A stretch of 64,000 nucleotides of DNA from Vicinamibacterales bacterium (lineage in GTDB: Bacteria; Acidobacteriota; Vicinamibacteria; Vicinamibacterales; UBA8438): NCBI GenBank assembly GCA_965220695.1, contig OZ244838.1, positions 2,530,377 through 2,594,376 of the forward strand, given 5' to 3'. The notes below the pieces were generated by a model, which saw only the letters and a program-made list of their open reading frames with translations, did not search any database and was not told where the DNA came from. This document shows, in pieces, positions 5,001-26,804 of the stretch (position 1 is its first letter; each line of letters begins with the position of its first letter). Position numbers and translations under genes: made by a program.

Positions 5001-5089
5001 ACGGCGTGGTGCACCTGGTGGCGGACACGCTGTGGCCGCCCGAGCTCGACCAACGGCCAGACGCGGTGCACAGCCGCGACTTTCACTGA
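1991..5089 (+). CDS. dnaE2: Error-prone DNA polymerase DnaE2 (Pol III alpha-type, PHP plus polymerase core)
   Basis: Track ORF 1943..5089. Homology-style start [26 protein letters not shown] at ATG 1991 (the typical DnaE2 N-terminus). Motifs [22 protein letters not shown]. Follows imuB. Confidence 0.9.
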
Positions 5090-9587: not shown

Positions 9588-9595
9588 GAGCGGCG

Positions 9596-12500: not shown

Positions 12501-12775
12501 GCGATCCCGTCGCGTGACATCGAGGCGACATCCTGCACGCCGGGGACGCCGCCGAGCGCCTGCTCGATCGGAATCGTCACCAGCTCCTCAATCTCGGCCG
12601 CGGGCGCGTCCTCCATCCGCACCTGCACCGAAACCTGCGGCAACTCAAGCGAGGGCAGAAGGTCGACCGGGATCCGCAGGCAGGCGACGACCCCGAACAG
12701 GACCACCGCCAGGGCGCCCATGCTCGCGCCGATCGGCCGCGCGACAAAGGTGCGAATCATCGCGTTCCGCTCCAA
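9596..12775 (-). CDS. RND (AcrB/MdtB-type) inner-membrane efflux permease
   Basis: 1059-aa ORF. N-terminus MIRTFVARPIGASMGALAVVLFG. AcrB-like motifs (AIIVVENI, GIGVDDAVVMVD). Tandem with a second RND permease, as in MdtBC-type heteromeric pumps. Confidence 0.85.
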   Translation of the reverse strand: MERNAMIRTFVARPIGASMGALAVVLFGVVACLRIPVDLLPSLELPQVSVQVRMEDAPAAEIEELVTIPIEQALGGVPGVQDVASMSRDGIAVITLTFPWMTDVDIAILNVRERLDEVRYGLPEAAAPPTVRRWDPGNRPFLVLAASTSDPRNGGSSGDLDWAGYGVSLAPAAGAQEAWRLIALSKAIRELLRPRLEQIPGVASAELAGARDERVLVEIDPARARLLDVAPAEIAEALRRAVTVPESGTLRKGPYRYSLRVPALVESVSDFATVVVSEPGADPRVLLADVARVGMAPSEPDSVLRFAGRPVVGIRLYKDASGNALALTDAVTGLLDEFRAQHPDIGLDVAYAQAGFIRDALRGALTSVVLGGALAFGVLFFFLGDWRQSVVIGIVVPVAVLGALAAMDWLDISINVISLGGLAVGVGLLVNTAIIVVENIQRHREQGFAPAAAATAGTSQVLAPITSVTVTTLVVFLPVVAVGGFAGALFRDQAVTVSVAVVVAWVVSLTLVPALSALLAGRGPVRAPKEPWTTVLGRLLGVLLRRRWLTLSAAAALVVAAAVGVLRTPREVAPPVDTGDVSVAADPRHGMAIEHLELAAATLEATIEAATDAEQVLTTAGLQAVNDLTGDGWMRRAAVRAQFHVADSAGVGDLGRAVERRLPGFDVRVEPTRTPLHDVLGLLAGPIDVAFSGADLAELRRLADAFAALVDDRGDLGRVVAAPPDPVSQVRLNLDQDALGAFGLSAAETAEQIGYVTRGDTVAQLRIGDPPLQVVLRHSLEHGASPASSLDRIPIVPRRGLVEGREGGAAARRPQVPLGLLGTPVADAAAAEITRRDHRRVLTVSLAPDGLARAGLERRLGEALAQLSLPPDVRVQVRTRSADAAESLASFRWVLIIALVLVAICLSAEFESVRLAFVVLLAVPLTLAGVVATWWVFGLTVNVFTIMAAAVLIGIGVDDAVVMVDFIRLKHRDAEPGGARQAIIAAALLRVRPILMTTVTTVLAVAPLALTTAPAHELQRALALTLIGGLLAGTVLSICVVPVLYDVLAPAPRREAVTC

Positions 12776-12777
12776 CT

Positions 12778-13311
12778 TCAGATGGCGGGAGGTTCCTCGT
12801 TCAACTGCTTGGGCGAGTGCGGCCTACCATCACCACGGTCCGCCTGTTTCAGACAGATGCCGCGCGCCTCAAGTGTACGCTCGACACACGCGATCGCGTG
12901 ATCGTTGCGGACCAGATGCTGGTGGAGCAGGTAATCGGCAACCGATGGCGGCGCCGAACCGTTCCGCCGATATTCGAGACCACCCCTGTCGAGAAGAGCC
13001 GCCGCGGTCCGGGGATCGCACGCGGAGAGCTCTGCCGCCGGGTCCCACCGCTCGCCGCCGTGCGATCTGACAATGAGCCTCAAAAGGCGCGCGAAGTCAA
13101 GCGACTCCTTCGTACGCTGACCGGCCGCAGTACACCGGGCGCGCACCGTGCTCACGCTGGCGCCGAGGAACTGTCCCCAGCTCGCCAATGTCTGCGGATC
13201 CGAGTCGCAGTCCAACGTTCGTACAACGAGCGATGCCCAACTGGCGTATGCGTTCACTTTCTGCACCTGCGGAAGACTCAATGGACGACGACGCATTCCT
13301 GTCCATGCCAC
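12778..13311 (-). CDS. Hypothetical protein with a possible helix-turn-helix; first gene of the RND operon
   Basis: 177-aa ORF (GTG 13311, alternative ATG 13296). Its stop is 2 nt before the RND start. The segment TLASWGQFLGASVSTVRARC looks HTH-like. No family recognised. A 128-bp internal piece is copied at 20738 and 22262. Confidence 0.45.
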   Translation of the reverse strand: MAWTGMRRRPLSLPQVQKVNAYASWASLVVRTLDCDSDPQTLASWGQFLGASVSTVRARCTAAGQRTKESLDFARLLRLIVRSHGGERWDPAAELSACDPRTAAALLDRGGLEYRRNGSAPPSVADYLLHQHLVRNDHAIACVERTLEARGICLKQADRGDGRPHSPKQLNEEPPAI

Positions 13312-13610
13312 GTCAACGACAGCTTCGACACGCCGGAAGCCTATAAGGTCGTGCGAGGTATCGTCAAGTCGTCTTCGCCACGAACCAGGTACAGAACGAA
13401 GGCCTTCGGCGATACGAAAGATGAATTATGCCTATGCCATAATTAAATTATGCCTGCCGTTACGCCTACAGTGTTGCGCGTACTGTCAAGTCGTGTGATA
13501 TTGCGACGAATATTGCGAACGATATTGCTTGATGGCGAGAAGATTCGTGTTGAAAATATGCTTGTTTGATCTGGCGTCGCAAGGCGACATCGGAGGACAA
13601 GGAGGTTGTG
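13312..13610. promoter_or_regulatory. AT-rich divergent intergenic control region with short direct repeats
   Basis: The lowest-GC stretch of the window, lying between divergent genes. ATATTGC occurs three times at an exact 12-bp period (13498, 13510, 13522). AATTATGCCT occurs twice, 22 bp apart (13424, 13446). GGAGG at 13601 precedes ATG 13611. Confidence 0.4.
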
Positions 13611-13841
13611 ATGTGCAGAGTCATGAGGACGTGGCGGACGGAGTTCGTAATGGTGTTGCTTGCCCTTTGCTTGGTTGCCACCGCTACGGCAACGGTGACG
13701 GCGCAGATTGAATCGGAGTACCCCTGTCTCTTGTGGTTTGAGGGAATTGCCGAGGTCGACATCGACGAAGGTTGCCACTTCGTGCCCGGTGGCGAAGGAT
13801 GCGTGTATTGCTATATGCAAATAAACATAACCGTAGAATAG
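13611..13841 (+). CDS. Small secreted Cys-rich acidic peptide (76-aa precursor, ~46-aa mature)
   Basis: ATG 13611 is preceded by GGAGG. Signal-like MCRVMRTWRTEFVMVLLALCLVATATATVTA, then QIESEYPCLLWFEGIAEVDIDEGCHFVPGGEGCVYCYMQINITVE (4 Cys). Codon usage is more AT-rich than the neighbours. No family recognised. Confidence 0.5.
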   Translation: MCRVMRTWRTEFVMVLLALCLVATATATVTAQIESEYPCLLWFEGIAEVDIDEGCHFVPGGEGCVYCYMQINITVE

Positions 13842-13920
13842 ACTGTCGGACAACGTGGACATCACAACAGGGCGCACCGATGGGTTTGCAGGGTGCGCCG
13901 CGCGTGACGGGAGTGGGGCG

Positions 13921-15171
13921 ATGCGAACGACACGGAGCCGGTGCGGCCGGGCAACCGGTCGCAGAGCGCGCTCTTCGCGCGGATCCTTCGTGATCGGTTC
14001 CCACCGGCAGTGCGTCCGTCTGGGGCTGCTTGGCGCGGCACTGGTAACGGCCTGCGCCGGGCCGACGCAGCCGCATGCGATCGATGCGCAAGGCCGCCCG
14101 GCGGTCATTGATGAGAGGATTACGATTACGTGGCCGGTGGGTGTGCCCTCGGGAGTGATCGCTAACATTGAGATTTGCGGCGATCGCGCGTATCTGCGTG
14201 TGGCTCGGCAGCAAGTGATCCGCGTGGTTGACCTCGCTGCAGGACGGGTGGTGGGGCAGATCGGCCGCGGCGGTGAAGGGCCCGGCGAGTTGCGGTCCCC
14301 GACAGGTCTCATGGTGGATTGCGCCCGCGGGAGGCTCTATGTCGGCGAGGGTCCCTCCGGCATCACCGTCTATCGCCTTTCGGACGGGGAGTACGTGCGA
14401 AAATATTTCCAGCCGGATACCTTCGGGTTGACCGTCGGGTCTCCGATGTTTCTGTCGCCGGACGGCGCACGCCTGTTTGCGGGAGGATTGTGGGCGGCAT
14501 CAATGGAGCGATGGCGGGGCTTCAACCGCCGCCCGCAGGATGAAGTGCTGGCAGGGATGCAATTGGGCTTGGCCGTGTCCCTGGCGGACGGCGCCGCGAC
14601 ACCGTTGTTGTCGGGCCCGATCGAAACCACCTGTATCGGTTTGTTCGAGAACTGCCGTACCGTGACGATAGCGCGTGTGGACGGCGCGTCGGACCCGTGG
14701 GTCGTTGCGCAGGCCACCGCGACCTCGCTCGGCGTGTACGACCACGACGGTGCGCTGGTGCGCACCATCGACGTGCGGTCGCCGTCGTTTCTGCGCGACG
14801 GGTCCCGCGCGCAGCGCATGAGCCGCGACGGCGGCGGGCTGGTGGCCATGGCGGATTGGGGCCTGACCAACAGCACCATCCGGATGGTCTACGCATTCGG
14901 GAATGTTATCGCCACCGTGCACCGACATCATGCAGTGGAGTACAACCAGCTGGGAACGATGCAGTACAACGTCTTCATGAACCTGCACTCGCACGATGGG
15001 GATGCGCTTGTCAGTGACATCCGCCTGCCGGGTCTTCCGCTGGGACGCGACGACACGCACCTGCTGTTCATCGACTGGGGGCAGGCCGGACGCAGGATGG
15101 CCTTCGACGCGGTGGACCTCGTGCGCGTGCCGGTCCTGGCCGGCGAGGCCGGCTTCGTGCGGGGCGAATAG
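13921..15171 (+). CDS. NHL-repeat-like beta-propeller lipoprotein, paralog 1 of 5
   Basis: Track ORF 13855..15171. ATG 13921 (MRTTRSRCGR...) is conserved in all five paralogs. Lipobox-like LGAALVTAC. NHL-like motif GQIGRGGEGPGELRSP. Conserved Cys pairs (ICGDRAY, DCARGRL, TCIG..ENCRTV). Confidence 0.7.
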   Translation: MRTTRSRCGRATGRRARSSRGSFVIGSHRQCVRLGLLGAALVTACAGPTQPHAIDAQGRPAVIDERITITWPVGVPSGVIANIEICGDRAYLRVARQQVIRVVDLAAGRVVGQIGRGGEGPGELRSPTGLMVDCARGRLYVGEGPSGITVYRLSDGEYVRKYFQPDTFGLTVGSPMFLSPDGARLFAGGLWAASMERWRGFNRRPQDEVLAGMQLGLAVSLADGAATPLLSGPIETTCIGLFENCRTVTIARVDGASDPWVVAQATATSLGVYDHDGALVRTIDVRSPSFLRDGSRAQRMSRDGGGLVAMADWGLTNSTIRMVYAFGNVIATVHRHHAVEYNQLGTMQYNVFMNLHSHDGDALVSDIRLPGLPLGRDDTHLLFIDWGQAGRRMAFDAVDLVRVPVLAGEAGFVRGE

Positions 15172-15172
15172 C

Positions 15173-15736
15173 ATGGAGGACTCGTTGGATGCACCCGGAT
15201 CCACGACCGGCACGTCGACGGCGGCAACTGCCGACGGCGAGGCGGCGAGGTCGACGGTCGCCGGCCGTACGGTCGGGCGGCCCCGTTCCAGGTTGCGTGT
15301 GGCGGCCAGACTGCTGTTGGGGGCGCTGATCCTCGTGTCCGTCGGCGTGCTCATCAGCGACTACCGGCGGCAAGTCACCTGGACACGGGATCTGGCGGCG
15401 GCGTATGCGTTCGTCGCGGACCATCCCGAGGTGTCACGGTATCTCCCCTGCTTTTGCGGTTGCGGTCAACAGGCGGGACATTCGTCCGTGGACAGTTGCT
15501 TCGTGAGTCGACGGGACGATGCAGGGAACGTCGTCTCCGAGAACGCACACGCCAGAACCTGACCGGTGTGCGTCGACATCGCGCGTGTCGCGATGCGGAT
15601 GCACCAAGGCGGCGACACGGTTTCCGAGATTCAAGGCGCCATCGATGGAGCATACGGGGCGACGAATGTCCTCAGAACCGACACCCCGGCATGGCCAGAC
15701 CAGCGACCGGCCGCGGAGGCCGAGACGCCGCAGTAG
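15173..15736 (+). CDS. Membrane-anchored PCYCGC-family protein with in-frame TGA at 15560-15562 (candidate selenocysteine, U-P-V-C), copy 1
   Basis: ATG lies 1 nt after the NHL-1 stop (TAGcATG). TM helix RLRVAARLLLGALILVSVGVLI. AYAFVADHPEVSRYLPCFCGCGQQAGHSSVDSCF matches the PCYCGC signature. The track ORF stops at TGA 15560, but the frame stays open 57 more codons (PVCVDIARVAMRMHQGGDTVSEIQGAIDGAYG...) to TAG 15734-15736. A hairpin follows the TGA. Confidence 0.6.
15568..15604 (+). promoter_or_regulatory. SECIS-like hairpin 6 nt downstream of TGA 15560
   Basis: GUGCGUC/GGAUGCAC outer stem (7 bp, one G-U), a 2x2 internal loop, CAUCGCG/CGCGAUG inner stem (7 bp) and apical loop CGUGU at 15584-15588, i.e. 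22-26 nt after the UGA. Identical in all three copies. Confidence 0.5.
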
Positions 15737-15860
15737 TGGCAGGTGGACCTGGCACCGGAGGCTATATGGCTCGACACGTTCCAACCGCATGGTCCTCAGC
15801 GGCCCATAGCAGTCCGTGGTGAAACCCGCGTTGCACCGAGATCGGCGATGCGCGCGCTGA

Positions 15861-16147
15861 GCAAGACCTGTAGGGGCAACCCTTGTGGTTGCCCTGTTGT
15901 ACGCAAGACCTGTAGGGGCAACCCTTGTGGTTGCCCTGTTGTACGCAAGACCTGTAGGGGCAACCCTTGTGGTTGCCCTGTTGTACGCAAGACCTGTAGG
16001 CGCAACCCTTGTAGTTGCCCTGTTGTACGCAAGACCTGTAGGGGCAACCCTTGTGGTTGCCCTGTTGTACGCAAGACCTGTAGGCGCAACCCTTGTAGTT
16101 GCCCTGTTGTACGCAAGACCTGTAGGGGCAACCCTTGTGGTTGCCCT
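15861..16147 (+). repeat. Tandem array of 7 x 42-bp REP-like hairpin units
   Basis: Unit gcaagacctgtaGGGGCAACCcttgtGGTTGCCCtgttgtac (8-bp stem, 5-nt loop). Copies start at 15861, 15903, 15945, 15987, 16029, 16071 and 16113. Copies 4 and 6 carry the same two substitutions (taggCgcaacccttgtAgttgccc). Confidence 0.9.
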
Positions 16148-16197
16148 CTTCGTCAGCAGGAACAACGACGCGCAGCAGGATGCAGCGTGAAACAGCA

Positions 16198-16257
16198 GAA
16201 TTCAGCGGGGAAAGGCTGAATTCAGCGGGAGAGCTCAGAATTCAGCGGGGATCGAAC
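16198..16257 (+). repeat. Tandem array of 3 x 20-bp GAATTCAGCGGG units
   Basis: GAATTCAGCGGG at 16198, 16218 and 16238, plus a degenerate fourth unit. The core (C)TGAATTCAG is palindromic and AT-rich relative to the genome. Confidence 0.85.
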
Positions 16258-16429
16258 GCAGCGGGGCTTTTGCCACGGACTGCTACTAACCGCCTGATCA
16301 GGTCACCGTCTCCGAGCTCCCGCACTGCAGATGACGCGAACGAGGATCAGCGTTCCCCTCCTCTACTCCATCTCATCCTCGTTCAGAGCCGTTGCCGGCC
16401 CCAACCGATTCAGACCGCCGTCGGGCGCC

Positions 16430-16620
16430 TCACAAACTGTATCCGTCCGGCGAGTACGCGACGGCCTCCGGGAAGTAGATGTTCTCGATGATGGATCGAC
16501 CCATGTAGACGGGCGAGGTCGCGGTCCTGTTCCGAGCCAGGGTCCGCATGAACGCGTTCTCGTCCTTCGGCGCCGGGATGCCCACCTCAAGGCAGATGCG
16601 GACTATGCCGGGGACGACGC
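16430..16620 (-). pseudogene. Dead 3'-terminal fragment of the alpha/beta hydrolase gene found intact at 26805..27962
   Basis: Track ORF 16430..16639 ends ...GIVRICLEVGIPAPKDENAFMRTLARNRTATSPVYMGRSIIENIYFPEAVAYSPDGYSL. The intact gene's C-terminus reads ...GIVRTCLEVGIPAPEDENAFMRTLARNRTATSPVYMGRSIIENIYFPGAVAYSPDGYSF. No N-terminal part is present. Confidence 0.85.
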
Positions 16621-16657
16621 GCGCCGGCAGAGGGTACACCGATGGGTCCGTAAGGAG

Positions 16658-16702
16658 TCTGCGCCGTCAGTAGGTTGTAAGCTGTATTCTCTGCGGCGCA
16701 GA
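16658..16702 (+). promoter_or_regulatory. Conserved leader element with 9-bp inverted repeat upstream of NHL paralogs 2-5
   Basis: TCTGCGCCG-(27 nt AT-rich: tcagtaggttgtaagctgtattctctg)-CGGCGCAGA. Near-identical blocks lie ahead of the starts at 19462, 20983 and 22503. Function unknown. Confidence 0.3.
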
Positions 16703-16738
16703 TTCCACGAGCGCGCCGCGCGAGAGGGACGCGGAACG

Positions 16739-17998
16739 ATGCGAACGACACGGCGTCGATGTGGCCGGGCGTGGCGGGTGATCGGCTACCGTGGGCACTC
16801 TCAGGGCAGGTCGTCCGTTGTCGGTTCGCACCGGCATTTTGTTTACCTGGGGCTGCTTGGCGCGGCACTGGTGACGGCCTGCGGCGGACCGACGCAGCCG
16901 TATGCGGTCGATGCGCAAGGGCGTCCGGCGGTCATTGATGACAGGATGACGATAACGTGGCCGGTGGGCGTGCCCTCGGGGCTGATTGCTAGCATCGAGA
17001 CCTGCGGCGGTCGCGCGTATCTGCACGTTGCTGGGCAGCAAGTGTTCCGCGTGGTTGACCTCGCCGCCGGGCGGGTTGTGGGGCAGATTGGCCGCGGCGG
17101 CGAAGGGCCCGGCGAGTTGCGGCAGCCGATAAGTCTCCTGGCGGATTGCGCACGCGGGAGGCTCTTCGTCGGCGAGGCTCCGGCCGGCATCACGGTCTAT
17201 CGCCTTCCGGACGGGGAGTACCTGCGAGAATTCTCCCTGCCGTGGCGTACGTTCGGGTTGTCTACCTTTACTCCGATGTTTCTGTCGCCGGACGGCGCAC
17301 GCCTGTTTGCGGGCGGGTTGTGGGCATCAAGAGATCGATGGCAGGGCTTTAGCCGGCGCCCGCAGGATGAAGTGCTGGCGGGGATGCAATCGGGTCTGGC
17401 CTTGTCCCTGGTGGACGGCGCGGCGGCGCCCTTGTTCTCGAGCCCGATCGAACCCGCCTGCATCGGATCGCAAAACGACTGTCGCACCGTGGCGATAGCG
17501 CGTGTGGAGGGGGCGCCGGACCCGTGGATCGTCGCGCAGGCCACCGCGACCTCGCTCGGCGTGTACGACGACGACGGTGCGCTGGTGCGCACCATCGACG
17601 TGCGGTCGCCGTTGTTCCTGCGCGACGGGTTCCGCGCGCGGCGCATGAGCCGCGATGGCGGGGGCTTTGCGGCCATGGTGGATTGGGGCCTGACCAACAG
17701 CACCGTCGGGAACGTCTACGCATTCGGGGACGTGATCGCCACCGTGCACCGACATCATGCAGTGGAGTACAACCAGCCGGGGCCCCTGCAGTACAACGTC
17801 CTCATGAACCTGCACTCGCACGATGGGGATGGGCTGGTCAGCGACATCCGCCTGCCGGGTCTTCCGCTGGGACGCGACGACACGCACCTGCTCTTCATCG
17901 ACTGGGGGCAGGCTGGACGCAGGATGGCCTTCGACGCGGTGGACCTCGTGCGGGTGCCGGTCGTGGCCGGCGAGGCCGGCTTCGTGCGGGGCGAATAG
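16739..17998 (+). CDS. NHL-repeat-like beta-propeller lipoprotein, paralog 2
   Basis: Track ORF 16331..17998. Conserved ATG 16739 (MRTTRRRCGRAW...), LGAALVTAC lipobox, GQIGRGGEGPGELRQP. High identity to paralog 1. Confidence 0.7.
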   Translation: MRTTRRRCGRAWRVIGYRGHSQGRSSVVGSHRHFVYLGLLGAALVTACGGPTQPYAVDAQGRPAVIDDRMTITWPVGVPSGLIASIETCGGRAYLHVAGQQVFRVVDLAAGRVVGQIGRGGEGPGELRQPISLLADCARGRLFVGEAPAGITVYRLPDGEYLREFSLPWRTFGLSTFTPMFLSPDGARLFAGGLWASRDRWQGFSRRPQDEVLAGMQSGLALSLVDGAAAPLFSSPIEPACIGSQNDCRTVAIARVEGAPDPWIVAQATATSLGVYDDDGALVRTIDVRSPLFLRDGFRARRMSRDGGGFAAMVDWGLTNSTVGNVYAFGDVIATVHRHHAVEYNQPGPLQYNVLMNLHSHDGDGLVSDIRLPGLPLGRDDTHLLFIDWGQAGRRMAFDAVDLVRVPVVAGEAGFVRGE

Positions 17999-17999
17999 C

Positions 18000-18542
18000 A
18001 TGGAGGACTCTGTGGACGCACCCGGATCCACGACCGACACGTCGACGGCGGCGAGTTCGACGGTCGCCGGCCGAACGGTCGGGCGGCCCCGTTCCAGGAT
18101 GCGTGTGGCGGCCAGACTGCTGTTGGGGGCGCTGATCCTCGTGTCCGCCGGCGTGCTCATCAGCGACTACCGGCGGCAAGTCACCTGGACGCGAGATCTT
18201 GCGGCGGCGTATGCGTTCGTCGCGGACCATCCCGAGGTGTCACGGTATCTCCCCTGCTTTTGCGGTTGCGGTCAACAGGCGGGACATTCGTCCGTGGACA
18301 GTTGCTTCGTGAGTCGACGGGACGAGGCAGGGAACGTCGTCTCCGAGAACGCACACGCCAGAACCTGACCGGTGTGCGTCGACATCGCGCGTGTCGCGAT
18401 GCGGATGCACCAACGCGGCGACACGGTTTCCGAGATTCAAGGCGCCATCGATGGAGCATACGGGGCGACGAATGTCCTCAGAACCGACACCCCGGCATGG
18501 CCAGACCAGCGACCGGCCGCGGAGGCCGAGACGCCGCAGTAG
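18000..18542 (+). CDS. PCYCGC-family candidate selenoprotein, copy 2 (in-frame TGA 18366-18368)
   Basis: ATG lies 1 nt after the NHL-2 stop. Same architecture as copy 1, with a 7-aa deletion in the N-terminal tail. The frame continues from the TGA to TAG 18540-18542. Confidence 0.6.
18374..18410 (+). promoter_or_regulatory. SECIS-like hairpin after TGA 18366
   Basis: Sequence identical to the hairpin at 15568-15604. Confidence 0.5.
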
Positions 18543-18664
18543 CGGCGGGTGGACCTGGCGCCGGAGGCTATGGTTCGACCCGCTCCAACCGCATGGTCCT
18601 CAGCGGCCCATAGCAGTCCGTGGTGAAACCCGCGTTGCACCGAGATCGGCGATGCGCGCGCTGA

Positions 18665-18825
18665 GCAAGACCTGTAGGGGCAACCCTTGTGGTTGCCCTG
18701 TTGTACGCAAGACCTGTAGGGGCAACCCTTGTGGTTGCCCTGTTGTACGCAAGACCTGTAGGCGCAACCCTTGTAGTTGCCCTGTTGTACGCAAGACCTG
18801 TAGGGGCAACCCTTGTGGTTGCCCT
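18665..18825 (+). repeat. Tandem array of 4 x 42-bp REP-like hairpin units
   Basis: Units start at 18665, 18707, 18749 (variant type) and 18791. Same consensus as the array at 15861. Confidence 0.9.
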
Positions 18826-18875
18826 CTTCGTCAGCAGGAACAACGACGCGCAGCAGGATGCAGCGTGAAACAGCA

Positions 18876-18975
18876 GAATTCAGCGGGGAATGGCTGAATT
18901 CAGCGGGTGAGCTCAGAATTCAGCGGGGAAAGGCTGAATTCAGCGGGAGAGCTCAGAATTCAGCGGGGATCGAAT
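18876..18975 (+). repeat. Tandem array of 5 x 20-bp GAATTCAGCGGG units
   Basis: GAATTC at 18876, 18896, 18916, 18936 and 18956, plus a degenerate terminal unit. Confidence 0.85.
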
Positions 18976-19158
18976 GCAGCGGGGCTTTTGCCACGGACTG
19001 CTACTAACCGCCAGATCCGGTCACCGGCTCCGAGCTCCCGCACTGCAGATGACTCCAACGAGGATCAGCGTTCCACTCCTCTACTCCATCTCATCCTCCT
19101 TCAGAGCCCTTGCCGGCCCCAACCGATTCGGACCGCCGCCGCCGCACCGTCGGGCGCC

Positions 19159-19340
19159 TCAGAAACTGTATCCGTCCGGCGAGTACGCGATGGCCCCCGG
19201 GAAGTAGATGTTCTCGATGATGGAGCGACCCATGTAGACGGGGGACGTCGCGGTCCTGTTTCGAGCCACGGTCGGCATGAACGCGTTCTCGTCCTCCGCC
19301 GCCGGAATGCCCAACTCGAGGCAGGTGCGGACTATGCCGG
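19159..19340 (-). pseudogene. Second dead 3'-terminal fragment of the alpha/beta hydrolase gene
   Basis: Track ORF 19159..19368 ends ...GIVRTCLELGIPAAEDENAFMPTVARNRTATSPVYMGRSIIENIYFPGAIAYSPDGYSF. Confidence 0.85.
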
Positions 19341-19461
19341 GGACAACGCGGGACGGCACAGGGTGCACCGATGGGTCCGCAAGGAGTCTGCGCCGTCAGT
19401 ATGTTGTAAGCTGTATTTTCTGCGCCGCAGATTGCGTCGCGCGAGAGGGGCGCGGAACGAA

Positions 19462-20736
19462 ATGCGAACGACACGGAGCCGATGTGGCCGGGCGTGGCGG
19501 GTGATCCGCTACCGTGGGCACTTTCGGCGCAGGTCGTCCGTTGTTGGTTCCCACCGGCATTTCGTTTGCCTGGGACTGCTTGGCGCGGCGCTGATAGCGG
19601 CCTGCGGCGAGCCGAGGCAGTATGCGGTCGATGCTCACGGGCGTCCGGCGGTCATTGACGATCGCGTGACGATAACGTGGCCGGTGGACGTGCCCTCGGG
19701 ACTGATCCTTCTTGCCGCGACCTGCGGTGATCGCATGTATCTGCGCGCGACAGGCCAGCAACGCGCGTCTCGCCAGCAAGTGATCCGCGTGGTTGACCTC
19801 GCCGCCGGACGGGTGGTGGGGCAGATCGGCCGAGGCGGCGAAGGGCCCGGCGAGTTGGAACAGCCGACAACTCTCCTGGCGGATTGCGCACGCGGGAGGC
19901 TCTTCGTCGGCGACCCTCCGGCCGGCATCAAGGTATATCGCCTTCCGGACGGGAAGTATCTGCGAGATTTCTCCCTGCCGTGGCGTACGTTCGGGTTGTC
20001 CACTTTGACTCCGATGTTTCTGTCGCCGGATGGCGCACACCTGTTTGCGGGCGGGTTGTGGGCATCAACAGATCAATGGATGGGCTTCAACGCGCGTCCG
20101 CAGGATGAAATGCTGGCGGCGATGCAATTGGGCTTGGCCTTGTCCCTGGCGGACGGCACGGCGGCGCCGTTGTTCTCTGGTCCGGTCGAAACTGCCTGCA
20201 TTGGATTGCCCGAGAACTGCCGCACGGTGACGATAGCGCGTGTGGACGGGGCGCCGGACCCGTGGATCGTCGCGCAGGCCACCGCGACCTCGCTCGGCGT
20301 GTACGACGACGACGGGGCGCTGGTGCGCACCATCGACGTGCGGTCGCCATCGTTCCTGCGGGACGGATCCCGGGCGCGGCGCATGAGACGCGATGGTGGG
20401 GGCTATGCGGCCATGGTGGATTGGGGCCTGACCAACAGCACCATCCGGAACGTCTACGCATTCGGGGACGTGATCGCGACCGTGCATCGGTATCACGCCA
20501 CGGAGTACAACCAGCAGGGGCCCCTGCAGTACAACGTCTTCATGAACCTGCACTCGTACGATGGGGATGGGCTGGTCAGCGACATCCGCCTGCCGGGTCA
20601 TCCGGTGGGCCGCGACGACACGCACCTGCTCTTCATCGACTGGGGGCAGGCCGGACGCAGGATGGCCTTCGACGCGGTGGACCTCGTGCGCGTGCCGGTC
20701 CTGGCCGGCGAGGCCGGCTTCGTGCGGGGCGAATAG
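19462..20736 (+). CDS. NHL-repeat-like beta-propeller lipoprotein, paralog 3
   Basis: Track ORF 18907..20736. Conserved ATG 19462 (MRTTRSRCGRAW...). Carries a short internal duplication (LRATGQQRASRQQVIRVVD) that is shared with paralog 4. Confidence 0.7.
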   Translation: MRTTRSRCGRAWRVIRYRGHFRRRSSVVGSHRHFVCLGLLGAALIAACGEPRQYAVDAHGRPAVIDDRVTITWPVDVPSGLILLAATCGDRMYLRATGQQRASRQQVIRVVDLAAGRVVGQIGRGGEGPGELEQPTTLLADCARGRLFVGDPPAGIKVYRLPDGKYLRDFSLPWRTFGLSTLTPMFLSPDGAHLFAGGLWASTDQWMGFNARPQDEMLAAMQLGLALSLADGTAAPLFSGPVETACIGLPENCRTVTIARVDGAPDPWIVAQATATSLGVYDDDGALVRTIDVRSPSFLRDGSRARRMRRDGGGYAAMVDWGLTNSTIRNVYAFGDVIATVHRYHATEYNQQGPLQYNVFMNLHSYDGDGLVSDIRLPGHPVGRDDTHLLFIDWGQAGRRMAFDAVDLVRVPVLAGEAGFVRGE

Positions 20737-20737
20737 C

Positions 20738-20865
20738 GGGGATTGCACGCGGAGAGTTCGGCTGCCGGGTCCCACCGCTCGCCGCCGTGCGATCTGACGA
20801 TGAGCCTCGGCACGCGGGCGAAGTCAAGCGACGCCTTCGTACGCTGGCCGGCCGCAATACACCGG
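20738..20865 (-). pseudogene. 128-bp internal fragment of the 12778..13311 gene, copy A
   Basis: Aligns to 13011-13138 (ggggatYgcacgcggaga...gtcccaccgctcgccgccgtgcgatctgac...acaccgg). Starts 2 nt after the NHL-3 stop. Confidence 0.8.
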
Positions 20866-20982
20866 ATCGGCACAGGGTGCACCGATCGGTCGGCAAGGAG
20901 TCGGCGCCGTCAGTATGTTGTAAGTTGATTTCTTGCGACGCAGATTCGCCGCTTGCGCCGCGCGAGAGGGGCGCGGAACGAA

Positions 20983-22260
20983 ATGCGAACGACACGGAGC
21001 CGATGTGGCCGGGCGTGGCGGGTGATCGGCTACCGTAGGCACTCTCAGCGCAGGTGTTCCGTGATCGGTTCCCACCGGCAGTTCGCCTGTCTGGGGCTGC
21101 TTGGCGCGGCGCTGGTGACGGCCTGCGCCGGACCGACGCAGCCGTATGCGGTCGATGCGCAAGGGCGCCCGGCGGTCATCGACGATCGGGTGACGATAAC
21201 GTGGCCGGCGGGCGTGCCCTCGGGACTGATCGTTCTTGCCGCGACCTGCGGTGATCGCGTGTATCTGCGCGCGACTGGCCAACAACGCGCGTCTCGCCAG
21301 CAAGTGATCCGCGTGGTTGACCTCGCCGCCGGACGGGTGGTGGGGCAGATCGGCCGCGGCGGCGAAGGGCCCGGCGAGTTGCAGCAGCCGACAACTCTCC
21401 TGGCGGATTGCGCACGCGGGAGGCTCTTCGTCGGCGACCCTCCGGCCGGCATCAAGGTCTATCGCCTTCCGGACGGGGAGTACCTGCGAGATTTCTCCCT
21501 GCCGTGGCGTACGTTCGATTTGTCCACCTTGACTCCGATGTTTCTGTCGCCGGATGGCGCACGCCTGTTTGCGGGCGGGATGTGGGCATCAACAGAACAA
21601 TGGCTGGGCTTCAACGCGCGCCCGCAGGATAAATTGCTGGCGGGGATGCAATTGGGCTTGGCCTTGTCCCTGGCGGACGGCGCGGCGGCACCGTTGTTCT
21701 CTGGTCCGGTCGAAACCGCCTGCATTGGATTGCCCGAGAACTGCCGCAACGTGACGATAGCGCGTGTGGACGGGGCGCCGGACCCGTGGATCGTCGCGCA
21801 GGCCACCGCGACCTCGCTCGGCGTGTACGACGACGACGGCGCGCTGGTGCGCACCATCGACGTGCGGTCGCCGTCGTTCCTGCGCGACGGGTCTCGCGCG
21901 CGGCGCATGAGCCGCGATGGCGGGGGCTATTCGGCCATGGTGGATTGGGGCCTGACCAACAGCACCATCCAGGACGTCTACGCATTCGGGGACGTGATCG
22001 CCACCGTGCATCATTATCACGCCACGGAGCGCAACCAGCAGGGGCCCCTGCAGTACAACGTCTTCATGAACCTGCACTCGCACGATGGGGATGGGCTGGT
22101 CAGCGACATCCGCCTGCCGGGTCATCCGGTGGGCCGCGACGACACGCACCTGCTCTTCGTCGACTGGGGGCAGGCCGGACGCAGGATGGCCTTCGACGCC
22201 GTGGACCTCGTGCGCGTGCCGGTCCTGGCCGGCGAGGCCGGCTTCGTGCGGGGCGAATAG
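20983..22260 (+). CDS. NHL-repeat-like beta-propeller lipoprotein, paralog 4
   Basis: Track ORF 20953..22260. Conserved ATG 20983. Same motifs as the other paralogs. Confidence 0.7.
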   Translation: MRTTRSRCGRAWRVIGYRRHSQRRCSVIGSHRQFACLGLLGAALVTACAGPTQPYAVDAQGRPAVIDDRVTITWPAGVPSGLIVLAATCGDRVYLRATGQQRASRQQVIRVVDLAAGRVVGQIGRGGEGPGELQQPTTLLADCARGRLFVGDPPAGIKVYRLPDGEYLRDFSLPWRTFDLSTLTPMFLSPDGARLFAGGMWASTEQWLGFNARPQDKLLAGMQLGLALSLADGAAAPLFSGPVETACIGLPENCRNVTIARVDGAPDPWIVAQATATSLGVYDDDGALVRTIDVRSPSFLRDGSRARRMSRDGGGYSAMVDWGLTNSTIQDVYAFGDVIATVHHYHATERNQQGPLQYNVFMNLHSHDGDGLVSDIRLPGHPVGRDDTHLLFVDWGQAGRRMAFDAVDLVRVPVLAGEAGFVRGE

Positions 22261-22261
22261 C

Positions 22262-22388
22262 GGGGATCGCACGCGGAAAGCTCTGCTGCCGGGTCCCACC
22301 GCTCGCCGCCGTGCGATCTGACGATGAGCCTCAAGGCGGGCGAAGTCAAGCGACTCCTTCGTACGCTGGCCGGCCGCAATACACCGGG
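22262..22388 (-). pseudogene. 128-bp internal fragment of the 12778..13311 gene, copy B
   Basis: Aligns to 13011-13138. Starts 2 nt after the NHL-4 stop. Confidence 0.8.
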
Positions 22389-22502
22389 CCGGCACAGGGT
22401 GCACCGCTGGGTCCGCAAGAAGTCTGCGCCCACAGATGTTGTAGGCTGTATTTTCTGCGGCGCAGACTCCCCGAGTGCGCCGCGCGAGAGGGGCGCGGAA
22501 CG

Positions 22503-23771
22503 ATGCGAACGACACGGCGCCGATGTGGCCGGGCGTGGCGGGTGACCGGGCACCGTGTGCGCTCTCAGGGCAGGTCGTCCGTTGTCGGTTCGTACCGGCA
22601 TTTTGTTTACCTGGGGCTGCTTGGCGCGGCGCTGATAACGGCCTGCGCCGAGCCGAGGCAGTATGCGGTCGATGCGCACGGGCGTCCGGCGGTCATCGAC
22701 GAACGGGTGACGATAACGTGGCCGGTGGGCGTGCCCTCGGGACTGATCAACGGTGTCGAGACCTGCGGCGATCGCGCGTATCTGCACGTGTCTCGGCAGC
22801 AAGCGATCGGCATCCGCGTGGTTGACCTCGTCGCCGGACGGGTGGTGGGGCAGATCGGCCGAGGCGGCGAAGGGCCCGGCGAGTTGCGGCAACCGATAAG
22901 TCTCCTGGCGGATTGCGCACGCGGGAGGCTCTTCGTCGGCGAGGCTCCGGCCGGCATCACGGTCTATCGCCTTTCGGACGGGGAGTACCTGCGAGAATAC
23001 CCCCTGCCGCGGCGTCCCTTCACCTTCGGGTTTTCCACCCTTACTCCGATGTTTCTGTCGCCGGACGGCGCACGCCTGTTTGCGGGCGGGTTGTGGGCAT
23101 CAAGAGAACGATGGCAGGACTTCAGTTGGCGCCCGCAGGATGAAGTGCTGGCGGGGATGCAATCGGGTCTGGCCTTGTCGCTGGCGGACGGCGCGGCGGC
23201 GCCCTTGTTCTCGAGCCCGATCGAACCCGCCTGCATCGGATCGCACAACGACTGCCGCATCGTGACGATAGCGCGTGTGGACAGGGCGCCGGACCCGTGG
23301 ATCGTCGCGCAGGCCACTGCGACCTCGCTCGGCGTGTACGACGACGACGGCGCGCTGGTGCGCACCATCGACGTGCGGTCGCCGTCGTTCCTGCGCGACG
23401 GGTCCCGCGCGCGGCGCATGAGCCGCGATGGCGGGGGCTTTGCGGCCATGGCGGATTGGGGCCTGACCAACAGCACCATCCGGAGGGTCTACGCATTCGG
23501 GGACGTGATCGCCACCGTGCACCGACATCATGCAGTGGAGTACAACCAGCCGGAATACCTCCAGTACAACGTCTTCATGAACCTGCACTCGCACGATGGG
23601 GATGGGCTGGTCAGCGACATCCGCCTGCCGGGTCTTCCGCTGGGACGCGACGACACGCACCTGCTGTTCATCGACTGGGGGCAGGCCGGACGCAGGAACG
23701 CCTTTGATGAAGTGGACCTCGTGCGCGTGCCGGTCCTGGCCGGCGAGGCCGGCTTCGTGCGGGGCGAATAG
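22503..23771 (+). CDS. NHL-repeat-like beta-propeller lipoprotein, paralog 5
   Basis: In frame within track ORF 21786..23771. Conserved ATG 22503 (MRTTRRRCGRAW...). The upstream part of the track ORF is an out-of-context read-through across paralog 4. Confidence 0.7.
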   Translation: MRTTRRRCGRAWRVTGHRVRSQGRSSVVGSYRHFVYLGLLGAALITACAEPRQYAVDAHGRPAVIDERVTITWPVGVPSGLINGVETCGDRAYLHVSRQQAIGIRVVDLVAGRVVGQIGRGGEGPGELRQPISLLADCARGRLFVGEAPAGITVYRLSDGEYLREYPLPRRPFTFGFSTLTPMFLSPDGARLFAGGLWASRERWQDFSWRPQDEVLAGMQSGLALSLADGAAAPLFSSPIEPACIGSHNDCRIVTIARVDRAPDPWIVAQATATSLGVYDDDGALVRTIDVRSPSFLRDGSRARRMSRDGGGFAAMADWGLTNSTIRRVYAFGDVIATVHRHHAVEYNQPEYLQYNVFMNLHSHDGDGLVSDIRLPGLPLGRDDTHLLFIDWGQAGRRNAFDEVDLVRVPVLAGEAGFVRGE

Positions 23772-23772
23772 C

Positions 23773-24336
23773 ATGGAGGACTCGTTGGACGCACCCGGAT
23801 CCACGACCGGCGCGGCGACGGCGGCAACTGCCGACGGCGAGGCGGCGAGGTCGACGGTCGCCGGCCGTTCGGTCGGGCGGCCCCGTTCCAGGTTGCGTGT
23901 GGCGGCCAGACTGCTGTTGGGGGCGCTGATCCTCGTGTCCGTCGGCGTGCTCATCAGCGACTACCGGCGGCAAGTCACCTGGACACGGGATCTGGCGGCG
24001 GCGTATGCGTTCGTCGCGGACCATCCCGAGGTGTCACGGTATCTCCCCTGCTTTTGCGGTTGCGGTCAACAGGCGGGACATTCGTCCGTGGACAGTTGCT
24101 TCGTGAGTCGACGGGATGAGGCAGGACACGTCGTCTCAGAGAACGCACACGCCAGAACCTGACCGGTGTGCGTCGACATCGCGCGTGTCGCGATGCGGAT
24201 GCACCAACGCGGCGACACGGTTTCCGAGATTCAAGGCGCCATCGATGGAGCATACGGGGCGACGAATGTCCTCAGAACCGACACCCCGGCATGGTCAGGC
24301 CAGCGACCAGCCGCGGAGGCCGAGACGCCGCAGTAG
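23773..24336 (+). CDS. PCYCGC-family candidate selenoprotein, copy 3 (in-frame TGA 24160-24162)
   Basis: ATG lies 1 nt after the NHL-5 stop. The frame continues from the TGA to TAG 24334-24336. A few substitutions relative to copy 1 occur on both sides of the TGA. Confidence 0.6.
24168..24204 (+). promoter_or_regulatory. SECIS-like hairpin after TGA 24160
   Basis: Sequence identical to the hairpin at 15568-15604. Confidence 0.5.
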
Positions 24337-24896
24337 CGACAATCTCCCCGCTGCCTGCAGCTTCCACCGGTAGTATCCAACAGGCGCTGCCTGCGAACCA
24401 GGGGTTTCTTGGACAATTGCGGGCGACAGGGTGCTCGCGGGAAGAGTGTCGAGATGAGGAAGCAAGATCAGCGGCCGCTGATGTCCCTGACACTGTCAAC
24501 CGCACGTCTGGCGGTAGCGTCATCCTGCTGGATCGGCCGAAGGTGGGCCGCACGGACTCATGGGCGCGGGCTCGGCGCGAACCCAGCCAACTGCGAGGAG
24601 CGACGGATGGAGGCACGGTGCCGGGGCTCCGACCTGACCTTCCCGGAAGTAATCGATGACTTCGTGCGAAGACAGGAGCGGCTGTAATCCGGCGGATCGC
24701 CTCGGCGGACTTCGTCCGGCTACCGCCGTGCGAGTCCAACCTGTGTGTTCCGCGAGGGTTCGAACGTCGGCCGAACATCGGTTTGTGGGCGGCACGCCGC
24801 CGTGCTGCCGTATAATGCAGCCATGAGATGGGGTGCAACGTTGGAGCCGGCGCATCCTGGGGCCGAGAAGAATCAGGGCCGTCGAGGCTTGAAGAA

Positions 24897-25580
24897 ATGA
24901 CTGAGCCCGAGCTGATTCCCTTTGATATACAGCGTTCTGACATCTCCATTCAAGGGACGTTCGAGTCAGAGTTGTGGTGTCTTTTTCACGATGTGCCGCG
25001 ACTCTATTCCGGGCTGCTGCACGGGTTGCAGGACACCGGGATCACGCCAAACAGTATCAAGGTTGACAACGGAGACGGGAGCCTCGGTGGCTACAATGTC
25101 CAGTTCTGGCTGATCGATTTTCGTGTCATGGTGAGGGTCCGCCTCGACCGGTTCGAGATCGACTCTCGGAACATCGCGCAGTCGGACATAGCTCCGGTGG
25201 AGCATGTTCTGGTGGGGCTGGTCGATGCACTTGCTGCGTCAACATCAGGCTTTCGGGTGGCGAACTACACCGTGGATCTTCACTTGCACGGTGATGCCAT
25301 AGGCGTGGACCGAAATGAGTATCTGAGCCGCTTCGTGAAGAACGCTCCTGATCTCGGACCGAGCCTCGGTTCAGGATGCGTGTTCTATTTTGGCGATCAG
25401 CCTGGCGCAGCGCTCAGGACTGTGTCGGTAGACTTGTCGGGTGTGGTGCCGGGTAAGGTCTATGTGCGGCTTTATGCTTCCTTGGATGGTGCTATCGCTC
25501 CCGGAGATCTGAGGACGGTGGTGGAGAAGGAAGCGAAGGACAGCTTGGCTGCGATGGGCCTGAAAGCACAGGGGAAGTAG
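24897..25580 (+). CDS. Hypothetical protein (227 aa), lower-GC insert
   Basis: Track ORF 24828..25580. ATG 24897 (MTEPELIPFDIQ...) is preceded by GAGG. Composition is noticeably more AT-rich than the flanks. No family recognised. Confidence 0.5.
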   Translation: MTEPELIPFDIQRSDISIQGTFESELWCLFHDVPRLYSGLLHGLQDTGITPNSIKVDNGDGSLGGYNVQFWLIDFRVMVRVRLDRFEIDSRNIAQSDIAPVEHVLVGLVDALAASTSGFRVANYTVDLHLHGDAIGVDRNEYLSRFVKNAPDLGPSLGSGCVFYFGDQPGAALRTVSVDLSGVVPGKVYVRLYASLDGAIAPGDLRTVVEKEAKDSLAAMGLKAQGK

Positions 25581-25586
25581 CAGTCA

Positions 25587-26330
25587 GTGGTTCAGAACAT
25601 GCCTTCGCGGATTGGCGCGTTGATCGAGTGGCGACAATCGGCGATTCCCCCGTTCGGAACGCCGATTCCAGGGCAATCGCCTTCTCCGCAGCCGGGACCG
25701 CGCTGTTTTGGGTCTCCTCCGGTTGCAAGGCAGACTTCGGCGAGCGAACGGCGGTCGGGGTTCCTGCCTGGTGCGATCGGCGATTCTGCCTTCTTTGAGG
25801 AGGCAAGACTCGCGTGGGGCGGACTGGTTTCCGACAGCCGGCAAGTTCTTGGACGCATGCCCAGAGTGGCTGCAGCCGGCCGTGTATTGACTGTAGGCCT
25901 TGGGCCGTGGTCTCGCGAAACATCGACGCCTGAGTTGCTGTCCGAGCTGATGAAGTCGCCGGTCGCGCACGGGGAGACTGCAGCCTGGCAAACCAGGACT
26001 TTACCGATGGCGTCTGTCATCTGGTCCCTGGTCGAGCGTCAGCAGGTTGGAGCTGCCAGGCAACTCTTGTCGTCGTTGCCCGACGCGCTTGAGTATCGAC
26101 GGCTACGTTCGCTCCTGCGGCGACCACGCACCTGGTCGGCACCAAGAAGGGATCGAGAGCGGTCGGTAGATTTTCGGTGGCTGCGCCAGCACAGCCGCGA
26201 CTACGTCGGGCGGTGGGTCGCCCTTGCCGGCGGAAACCTACTGGCTGAGGCCGATTCTCTTCACGCGCTGCGCAGTCAACTCCGACAAGGCGCTCCACAG
26301 GCGAGGCCTCTGATCCACTTCATTAGGTAG
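25587..26330 (+). CDS. Protein with C-terminal DUF5678-like domain (start uncertain; alternative ATG 26007)
   Basis: The C-terminus FRWLRQHSRDYVGRWVALAGGNLLAEADSLHALRSQL...PLIHFI resembles the small W..H...Y.G.WVAl.g domain often found next to retropepsin-like proteases. The N-terminal 140 aa are low-complexity and may not be coding. Confidence 0.4.
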   Translation: MVQNMPSRIGALIEWRQSAIPPFGTPIPGQSPSPQPGPRCFGSPPVARQTSASERRSGFLPGAIGDSAFFEEARLAWGGLVSDSRQVLGRMPRVAAAGRVLTVGLGPWSRETSTPELLSELMKSPVAHGETAAWQTRTLPMASVIWSLVERQQVGAARQLLSSLPDALEYRRLRSLLRRPRTWSAPRRDRERSVDFRWLRQHSRDYVGRWVALAGGNLLAEADSLHALRSQLRQGAPQARPLIHFIR

Positions 26331-26334
26331 CCTG

Positions 26335-26790: not shown

Positions 26791-26804
26791 GACCGTCGGG
26801 CGCC

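Follow-up and report, generated by a model that had tools for sequence, protein, structure and literature searches.

The subject of this analysis is a gene cluster in a 64-kb window of DNA from a soil bacterium of the Vicinamibacterales (Acidobacteriota) (the window, i.e. the whole stretch analysed), the genome of which has a G+C content of 67%. The cluster consists of genes for β-propeller lipoproteins and for proteins of the PCYCGC family (Pfam PF13798), which very probably contain selenocysteine; they are preceded by a gene for a small peptide and adjoin an efflux pump operon. Equivalent genes recur together in relatives and are treated here as a module. As judged from the sequences, its core would comprise a small peptide exported via the Sec pathway and an NHL-like, six-bladed propeller lipoprotein, which the PCYCGC protein and a protein designated X usually join. 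No description of this module was found in the accessible literature on PCYCGC, PF13798, DUF5128, DUF4221, BF3164 or ADOP. An earlier reading, made from the window's sequence alone (the sequence-only reading), had taken the system to be undescribed. That holds for the context in which peptide, propeller, PCYCGC, X and pump occur, which is new, and not for the selenoproteins, since both the PCYCGC selenoprotein (OS_HP4) and the Prx-like class discussed below were already known. The same reading missed the efflux pumps, the conserved X gene and the constant pairing of peptide and propeller. It is tentatively proposed that the module is a lineage-restricted, dispensable and fast-evolving envelope system by which a disulfide-rich peptide would be matured, bound and exported, and in which the PCYCGC protein would be the thiol/selenol redox or metal component.

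Contigs carrying relatives of the propeller and of the PCYCGC protein (designated by L-numbers, as are the loci on them) were examined for gene neighbourhood. It is apparent that, in approximately 12 independent loci, the propeller gene is preceded by one for a small, signal-peptide-bearing peptide with a Cys framework. Such homologues lie directly 5′ of the propeller gene in L005/L008, L024, L007, L001, L002, L003, L010, L011, L013, L015, L018 and L020, and the order peptide, then propeller, is invariant. The PCYCGC gene accompanies the propeller in 10 of the 11 informative independent loci, L020 being the exception, so that the pairing which the sequence-only reading had proposed to look for beyond its own locus does exist. 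Peptide, propeller and PCYCGC were found together at 35-75% protein identity in L007, L001, L003/4 and L010, and in L002, L011/12, L013/14 and L015. The first four of these are RND-type loci and the last four ADOP-type loci.

The RND-type loci (the window, L005/L008, L024, L007, L009, L001, L003/4 and L010) contain two RND permeases and an adaptor, with peptide, propeller and PCYCGC in that order, either embedded among them or adjacent. The arrangement in L007 is illustrative: two ACR_tran permeases, peptide, propeller, selenocysteine-form PCYCGC and membrane-fusion protein (MFP) are all co-directional, and X lies just upstream. In the ADOP-type loci (L002, L011/12, L013/14, L015 and L020, and in part L017 and L018) the order is X, PCYCGC, small peptide, propeller and an ADOP-family permease, a duplicated MacB-like protein. 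An efflux machine, either paired RND permeases with an MFP or an ADOP/MacB-type permease, adjoins the module in nearly every locus with enough flanking sequence. The window derives from the Vicinamibacterales, and the other module loci are probably from Acidobacteriota as well.

The window contains five propeller genes, all complete and intact (approximately 393-425 aa each) and on the plus strand. PCYCGC genes are situated 3′ of copies 1, 2 and 5; copies 3 and 4 are without this partner (Table 1). The fivefold unit of the sequence-only reading is therefore correct for the propeller, and the propeller-PCYCGC pair is threefold. In each of the three pairs a single base, C, separates the TAG stop codon of the propeller from the ATG of the PCYCGC gene (TAG-C-ATG), which agrees with the 1-nt spacing noted previously. 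Nucleotide identities range from 82 to 94% among the five propeller copies and from 96 to 98% among the three PCYCGC copies. L022, an independent long-read assembly from another sample, is 99.7-99.9% identical to the window and has the same layout of five propellers and three PCYCGC genes, the sole difference in layout being the number of 42-nt repeats. Because the propeller copies have diverged (by 6-18% of nucleotides) and L022 shows the same layout, the array is real, and an assembly artefact was ruled out as its source. The junctions carry scars of two types: 3′ fragments of the hydrolase gene at 26.8 kb occur before copies 2 and 3 (type A), and fragments of gene X before copies 4 and 5 (type B). 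In addition, 42-nt palindromic arrays resembling repetitive extragenic palindromes (REP) sit after PCYCGC copies 1 and 2. These two scar types and the REP-like arrays indicate at least two rounds of unequal recombination.

Table 1. Features of the module and its surroundings in the window (nucleotide positions within the 64-kb window; coding assignments are predictions)
Feature	Position	Strand	Evidence or remarks
RND membrane-fusion (periplasmic adaptor) protein, last gene of divergent pump operon	5211-6455	-	Pfam HlyD_3/HlyD_D23; TIGR01730 RND_mfp, 141 bits
RND permease 2	6492-9602	-	ACR_tran, E 5e-127; listed open reading frame (ORF) to 9974, start probably near 9602 by analogy with 1036-aa orthologues
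RND permease 1	9596-12775	-	ACR_tran, E 1e-175; NCBIfam generic multidrug RND
X, regulator-like protein (177 aa)	12778-13311	-	Conserved in module loci
Small secreted peptide, Cys-rich	13611-13841	+	Signal peptide; good Shine-Dalgarno sequence
Propeller lipoprotein, copy 1 (NHL-like, DUF5128-related)	13921-15171	+	Alternative GTG start at 13990
Probable PCYCGC/CYCXC selenoprotein, copy 1	15173-15736	+	TGA 15560-15562; PF13798, NF041379; Cys at TGA position in homologues
SECIS-like hairpin, PCYCGC copy 1	15568-15604	+	Equivalents at 18374-18410 and 24168-24204
REP-like tandem array, 42-nt palindromic element, 6.8 copies	15861-16147	+	Part of unit junction
Duplicated 3′-end fragment of alpha/beta-hydrolase gene (type A scar)	16418-16611		93.8% identity to native 26793-26986
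Propeller lipoprotein, copy 2	16739-17998	+	
Probable PCYCGC selenoprotein, copy 2	18000-18542	+	TGA 18366-18368
REP-like 42-nt array, 3.8 copies	18665-18825	+	
Second duplicated 3′-end fragment of alpha/beta-hydrolase gene	19146-19340		94.4% identity to 26792-26986
Propeller lipoprotein, copy 3	19462-20736	+	No PCYCGC after
Duplicated internal fragment of gene X (type B scar)	20737-20865		89.9% identity to native 13010-13138; tblastn
Propeller lipoprotein, copy 4	20983-22260	+	No PCYCGC after
Second duplicated fragment of gene X	22261-22389		93.9% identity to 13010-13140
Propeller lipoprotein, copy 5	22503-23771	+	
Probable PCYCGC selenoprotein, copy 3	23773-24336	+	TGA 24160-24162
Periplasmic AhpC/TSA + DsbD_N selenoprotein (WUPYC)	28302-29495	+	TGA 28629-28631; AhpC-TSA, E 1.7e-27; DsbD_N, E 3.8e-12

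The REP-like palindrome, GTAGGGGCAACCCTTGTGGTTGCCC, is dispersed in the genome and was observed at 15861-16147, 18665-18825, 35513-35541 and 53716-53980 (minus strand). It occurs 17 times, compared with an expectation of 0, with tandem periods of 42 nt (6.8 and 3.8 copies) and 59 nt (5 copies); in L022, which is 99.8% identical to the window, the array length is different. Right after the 42-nt arrays, at 16195-16251 and 18873-18969, there is a second short tandem repeat of approximately 20 nt, GCAGAATTCAGCGGGGAAAGC, the inverted arms of which contain an EcoRI site. Between PCYCGC copy 3 and the hydrolase gene lies a three-gene insert of lower G+C content (approximately 61-63%; 24337-26790). 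Two of its products, of 250 and 247 aa, match no family (weak DUF5678), and the third, of 151 aa, is a retropepsin-like aspartyl protease. The insert has no PADLOC match, and is present in L022 and absent from L008, a relative of 97% identity. A segment of approximately 1.6 kb (33971-35549), which ends at a REP-like element, is also absent from L008, where its flanks are joined directly.

The PCYCGC proteins of the window (approximately 187 codons) are predicted to have one transmembrane (TM) helix, and each gene contains one in-frame TGA. The match to PF13798 scored 79.6 bits against a gathering threshold of 25 (E 2.9e-22, residues 73-172). All three copies carry five Cys residues and the TGA position, as had been read from the sequence; the arrangement is PCFCGC...C...H...UPVC (U, selenocysteine), and conservation continues beyond the TGA. 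The PCFCGC motif corresponds to residues 92-97, and U130 and C133 align with Cys residues of homologues. In an alignment of 35 homologues, C93, C95, C97, H103, C109 and H126 are invariant, and both positions of the CxxC motif are Cys (or selenocysteine) in every sequence covering them. Cys and selenocysteine forms both exist across homologues, a point that the sequence-only reading had marked for checking. Position 130 is Cys in approximately 24 full-length homologues, and 10 others were called as truncated exactly there, so that these 10 are taken to be selenocysteine forms cut at the TGA.

A hairpin resembling a selenocysteine insertion sequence (SECIS) follows the TGA. It has 14 pairs and a G-containing 5-nt loop (CGUGU), and starts 9 nt past the U of the UGA. 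In silico folding, on which the hairpin is based, gave z values of approximately -3 in selenocysteine forms versus -0.3 to -1.3 in Cys forms. The hairpin is conserved in L007, L009 and L023, and is nearly invariant in L007 and L009, two selenocysteine-form relatives with approximately 60% protein identity; covariation amounts to one compensatory pair only, and the selenocysteine form in L015 is less clear. A search of Rfam, at gathering thresholds and at E≤1, yielded no SECIS family and no other RNA in the region. Given the Cys at this position in approximately 24 homologues, the 10 truncations there and the stable hairpin found only in selenocysteine forms, the in-frame TGA very probably encodes selenocysteine. 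Selenocysteine and Cys forms are both present in both locus arrangements.

In a 2026 review of the selenoproteome, PF13798 proteins with a UxxC motif are listed as 'CYCXC family protein (OS_HP4)', with credit to Zhang & Gladyshev (2007). The selenoprotein family is thus already described (PF13798; NF041379; OS_HP4), and the window proteins share with it the PF13798 domain, the PC[YF]CGC motif and the position of selenocysteine in UxxC/CxxC. They form a separate subfamily, since they score 61.3 bits (E 7e-17) against the NF041379 equivalog 'CYCXC family (seleno)protein', below its cutoff of 90. The anchors differ as well, being an N-terminal TM helix in the window proteins and a lipobox in the Bacillales CYCXC members, which are lipoproteins. 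Moreover, neither a function nor a gene neighbourhood is on record for the CYCXC family, whereas the PCYCGC genes of the window are tied to peptide, propeller and pump.

The AlphaFold model of a Cys-form PCYCGC homologue (predicted local distance difference test, pLDDT, 89.5) begins with a long helix that comprises the TM segment and a stalk; a small domain follows, in which the CxxC motif is placed at the N-terminus of helix 103-117. Foldseek found no significant match in the PDB for this confident model. The best match, the N-terminal domain of CcmH, had an E value of approximately 2 and was not counted as a fold relative; pyruvate kinase, the only return of a PDB sequence search, was judged to be spurious.

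The lipobox pattern [LVI][ASTVI][GAS]C is matched by L[VI][TA]AC in all five propeller copies and also occurs in most homologues, and C86, C134, C238 and C245 are invariant across 36 diverse family members. S287, F290, W313, N317, S318, N354 and D366 are also invariant, and RSPxFxRDG and LVSDIRLP are motifs of the family. The sequence-only reading had called these proteins NHL propeller lipoproteins with four conserved Cys. The lipobox and the Cys residues bear this out; of the two Pfam families named for checking, PF13798 was recovered, and NHL (PF01436) gave no match to the propeller at E≤1. Pfam instead returned a marginal match to PF17170, DUF5128 '6-bladed beta-propeller' (25.1 bits versus 22.9), in one blade region (residues 79-161). 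The likeness to NHL comes from profile and fold comparisons. In the PDB, the family profile matched the NHL domains of Thin and TRIM (E 1.7e-5 to 8e-3), and the AF2 model is a β-propeller (pLDDT 72.6), for which Foldseek returned the NHL domains of Brat and TRIM proteins at approximately 1e-8, NHL/WD40 propellers ranking after Bacteroides lipoproteins. On these comparisons, the protein is best regarded as NHL-like and not as a member of Pfam NHL. A word-indexed search yielded 19 close relatives, and a full HMMER scan of 1.84 billion cluster representatives gave 88 matches at E≤1e-30, among which are large NHL proteins with multiple repeats.

The best structural matches to the propeller were six-bladed propeller lipoproteins of Bacteroides, the DUF4221 protein BVU_1028 (PDB 3s9j; E 1.8e-11) and BF0058 (PDB 4raa; E 5.7e-9). 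The Bacteroides proteins (DUF5128/DUF4934) and those of the window are alike in being exported lipoproteins of unknown function; their sequence identity is just 12-14%, and the window family is set apart by its four invariant Cys, its motifs and its partner genes. NHL propellers are joined to thiol-redox domains in human NHLRC2 and in bacterial redoxin-NHL fusions. The association of an NHL-like propeller with a CxxC-type protein in the window is similar, except that the partner is not of the thioredoxin fold (no fold match in the PDB) and is encoded by a separate gene. An apparent propeller-PCYCGC fusion in L001 (P0012) was rejected as a frameshift, as the propeller and PCYCGC matches lie in different reading frames of an 11x long-read contig.

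The small peptide, which the sequence-only reading had correctly placed before the unit as a Cys-rich secreted product, has a conserved leader, with W-R/K-x-E, a hydrophobic segment and an AxA cleavage site. The mature part, of approximately 45 aa, is hypervariable around a four-Cys framework (C-x11-17-C-x5-7-C-x2-3-C), of which the L018 peptide is a two-Cys variant. Like the peptide, the propeller and PCYCGC proteins are predicted to be extracytoplasmic, as had been proposed. No match for the peptide or for X, and nothing relevant for the propeller, was obtained with Pfam, NCBIfam or PADLOC.

The rate of change of the module was assessed from the window, L008 and L024, the flanks of which are approximately 97% identical (95-98% for the window versus L008); flank identity to the closest public relative, Vicinamibacterales metagenome-assembled genome OZ253576.1, is likewise approximately 97%. 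The window has five propellers and three intact PCYCGC genes, L008 has three and none (one PCYCGC gene being truncated just before the PCFCGC motif), and L024 has three and one. When the peptide genes of the window and L008 are compared, identity is 95% in promoter and leader, falls to 42% across the remaining signal peptide and the mature peptide, and recovers in part (to approximately 60%) past the stop codon. In L024 the peptide gene is disrupted, and its mature sequence is a third one, unrelated to the other two. Variation among the propeller paralogues clusters in a few loops (aa 78-99 and 160-176), and the ratio of nonsynonymous to synonymous substitution rates (dN/dS) is 0.43-0.84. Pseudogenes, truncated components and insertion sequence (IS) elements were observed in several module loci. 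Such features are those of an accessory locus with links to conflict or communication, and not of a housekeeping metal system.

A single propeller-PCYCGC pair with a fragment of gene X, flanked by IS240-type transposases and adjoining a PadR-ADOP gene pair, was observed in another strain, L023 (8160-11750), which suggests a mobile unit.

The RND operon (12775 down to 5211) and gene X are on the minus strand, immediately upstream of the array. The two permeases scored 233 and 293 bits against TIGR00914 (CusA/CzcA, heavy-metal efflux RND), for which the cutoff is 701, and higher against generic multidrug RND models; the best NCBIfam matches of permease 2 were generic multidrug/MdtB-like. Both the window and L007 encode two ACR_tran permeases and one MFP, and no gene for an outer-membrane factor was identified in either. 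A 243-aa ORF after the MFP in L007 appeared TolC-like by eye; Pfam did not support it. Adjoining the RND operon in the window (398-5089) are an ImuB-like (IMS family) gene and, after it, a gene for a DnaE2-type error-prone DNA polymerase III alpha subunit, which make up a mutagenesis cassette.

Protein X is 46-51% identical to the product of the gene preceding PCYCGC in L002, L011, L013 and L020, is also encoded in L007 and L009, and occurs in eight lineages. It has no match in Pfam, NCBIfam, PADLOC or the PDB; a profile search of the PDB retrieved only a designed WD40 repeat, a low-complexity-like match that was rejected. Since a response regulator with a REC domain in L011 is homologous to X in its C-terminal half, we infer that X may be a cytoplasmic regulator. 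The regulator in question (L011 5787-6581) has, as its C-terminal output domain, a homologue of the stand-alone X; this domain matches nothing in Pfam or NCBIfam and may be an undescribed DNA-binding output domain. In L007, the region directly 5′ of the module cluster (617-2444) encodes a repressor of the BlaI/CopY family and an M56 peptidase resembling BlaR1, which may form a sensor of envelope signals.

The sequence-only reading had also pointed to a selenocysteine-containing redoxin-DsbD-like protein downstream, and had counted four UGA-selenocysteine candidates in all. The gene, with its WUPYC motif, is indeed present (Table 1), and its TGA and flanks are conserved in the relative L005. 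This protein accompanies the module in the window lineage only and is absent from all non-orthologous loci; it was therefore rejected as a module member and is a neighbour. The four candidates thus consist of three paralogues and one unrelated gene. ARAGORN found no tRNA, and hence no selenocysteine tRNA, in the 64-kb window, and no sel genes are among the genes there; the redoxin gene, as a second and unrelated selenocysteine gene in the window, lends indirect support to selenocysteine decoding in this genome. According to the selenoproteome review, the redoxin-DsbD_N protein falls in the long-known class of 'Prx-like thiol:disulfide oxidoreductase' selenoproteins. Elsewhere in the window, on the minus strand (41410-42615), a single ORF joins a HepT-like RNase domain to DUF429.

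If the module does handle a disulfide-rich peptide, its action may be envisaged as follows. The peptide would reach the periplasm via Sec. There the PCYCGC protein, as a dedicated thiol/selenol redox (or metal-thiolate) component, would set the disulfide state of peptide, propeller or both by means of its UxxC motif at a helix N-terminus and its Cys3/His/Cys/His cluster. The propeller lipoproteins would bind the peptide, for immunity, chaperoning or presentation, and the adjacent pump would expel it across the outer membrane or, alternatively, serve in self-protection. In the window, unequal recombination has amplified the propeller to five copies and the propeller-PCYCGC unit to three, which would have given rise to diverged binding variants. 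We infer the topology, the redox role, the binding of peptide by propeller and the export by the pump from the genes and models described above, as well as the purpose of the peptide, which may be bacteriocin-like or a signal.

MacB-type and RND pumps draw their substrates from the periplasm; MacAB-TolC exports the disulfide-bonded enterotoxin STII from that compartment, and the MacB-like DarBCD exports darobactin. Known peptide export and immunity loci include the lantibiotic LanI lipoprotein with LanFEG, MacAB-TolC, DarBCD, and bacteriocin clusters with dedicated thiol-disulfide oxidoreductases. The module follows a similar logic: a small, variable peptide with a conserved leader, a multi-copy, diverged lipoprotein partner, a pump of the MacB type or RND type alongside, a putative dedicated protein for thiol redox, and turnover between strains. 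It differs from them in that no component is homologous and the leader is of the Sec type and not of the double-glycine or RiPP (ribosomally synthesized and post-translationally modified peptide) type. A further step, and a doubtful one, would be to regard it as a new class of envelope peptide system in Acidobacteriota, with Sec-exported hypervariable peptides built on a disulfide framework, maturation by PCYCGC as a dedicated selenoprotein oxidoreductase outside the thioredoxin fold, arrays of diversifying propeller paralogues for immunity or reception, and expulsion by RND or ADOP machinery.

Several observations weigh against the handling of a peptide as the function of the module. No component matches a known bacteriocin, immunity, pheromone or RiPP family, or a curated defence model. 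The dN/dS values between propeller paralogues are below 1, and positive selection is therefore not demonstrated. The core can occur without PCYCGC, which is missing from L020 and truncated in L008. Finally, two sets of residues suggest metal binding: a conserved His/Asp-rich motif, HYHDGADHCDSGG, in the mature part of the ADOP-type peptides, and the two invariant His and six Cys/selenocysteine residues of PCYCGC, which resemble a metal site rather than the active site of a simple dithiol oxidoreductase.

These last observations lead to the principal alternative, an accessory of an efflux pump for metals or metalloids (Cu, Hg, Cd, Zn, Se/As), in which PCYCGC and the small Cys/His-rich peptide would be CusF-like metallochaperones of the periplasm, the propeller a scaffold and the pump the means of removal. 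The eight conserved potential ligands of PCYCGC (Cys3-His-Cys-His-Sec-x-x-Cys, Sec denoting selenocysteine), the motif H-x-H-x-G-A-D-H-C-D-S-G-G of the ADOP-type peptides, the constant presence of a pump nearby and weak CzcB/CusB-type matches of the MFP would all be accommodated, and the table of the selenoproteome review includes predicted metal-binding UxxC selenoproteins (cation ATPases, CopZ-like and MerT-like proteins). Against this, the RND permeases are best described as multidrug/Mdt-like, the His motif is absent from RND-type peptides, that of the window included, and no conserved metal sensor (MerR, ArsR or a clearly linked CopY-type protein) belongs to the module. Nor would a hypervariable mature peptide at approximately 97% strain identity, together with frequent decay of components, be expected of metal homeostasis. 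Metal handling is thus considered unlikely, and the module more likely handles a peptide than detoxifies metals. The suggestion of the sequence-only reading that propeller and PCYCGC form a redox or metal/metalloid pair is upheld as regards the conserved association; its metal rationale is weakened because the RND pump is generic and multidrug-like and the mature peptide hypervariable, and the pair is not obligate (L008, L020).

A periplasmic hetero-oligomeric enzyme or binding complex is less probable still. The propeller would be its large subunit, the peptide its small subunit and PCYCGC a disulfide-forming accessory, as in methylamine dehydrogenase or quinohemoprotein amine dehydrogenase. 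In the former, MauB is a propeller, MauA a small Cys-rich subunit and MauD/MauE thiol-redox accessories; in the module, too, a propeller, a small disulfide-rich secreted partner and a membrane thiol-redox accessory are encoded together. The invariant gene order and the invariant Cys residues of both peptide and propeller, the membrane-anchored Cys-rich protein adjoining them, and the invariant S287, F290, W313, N317, S318, N354 and D366 of the propeller, which suggest a functional site, would fit such a complex. There is, however, no sequence or fold similarity, and no homology, to MauA, MauB, MauD or the Qhp proteins; a subunit bearing a cofactor should not be hypervariable, as the small partner is here; as many as five propeller genes share one peptide gene; and the module encodes no electron acceptor or conserved redox partner (cytochrome, cupredoxin), the linkage to pumps being left unexplained. 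Least probable of all is the absence of any joint function, i.e. common descent within a recombination-prone region, with amplification as a neutral or decaying segmental duplication: the scars (gene X and hydrolase fragments), REP-like arrays and IS elements do mark a recombination hot spot, and several copies are truncated in relatives, but the association is kept at protein identities of 25-45%, across two gene orders and two pump types, none of the five propeller and three PCYCGC ORFs is disrupted, their dN/dS being below 1, and the translational coupling TAG-C-ATG is conserved.

PF13798/CYCXC is a selenoprotein family without a known function, and the conserved neighbourhood described here provides its first testable functional context. 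If the reading as a new class of envelope peptide system is correct, it would supply a first function for the PCYCGC/CYCXC family, for the propeller family and for at least some of the orphan ADOP permeases of Acidobacteria. Dozens of such permeases, and many RND pumps of unknown role, are present in these organisms, and an accessory module offers an entry point to them. Sec-to-Cys switches (Sec, selenocysteine) inside one small family constitute a natural experiment on the reasons for selenocysteine use. A Cys-framework peptide that is hypervariable, combined with lipoprotein partners in multiple copies, is the signature of loci for interbacterial competition or signalling, which are almost unexplored in the Acidobacteriota, an abundant and hard-to-culture phylum of soil.

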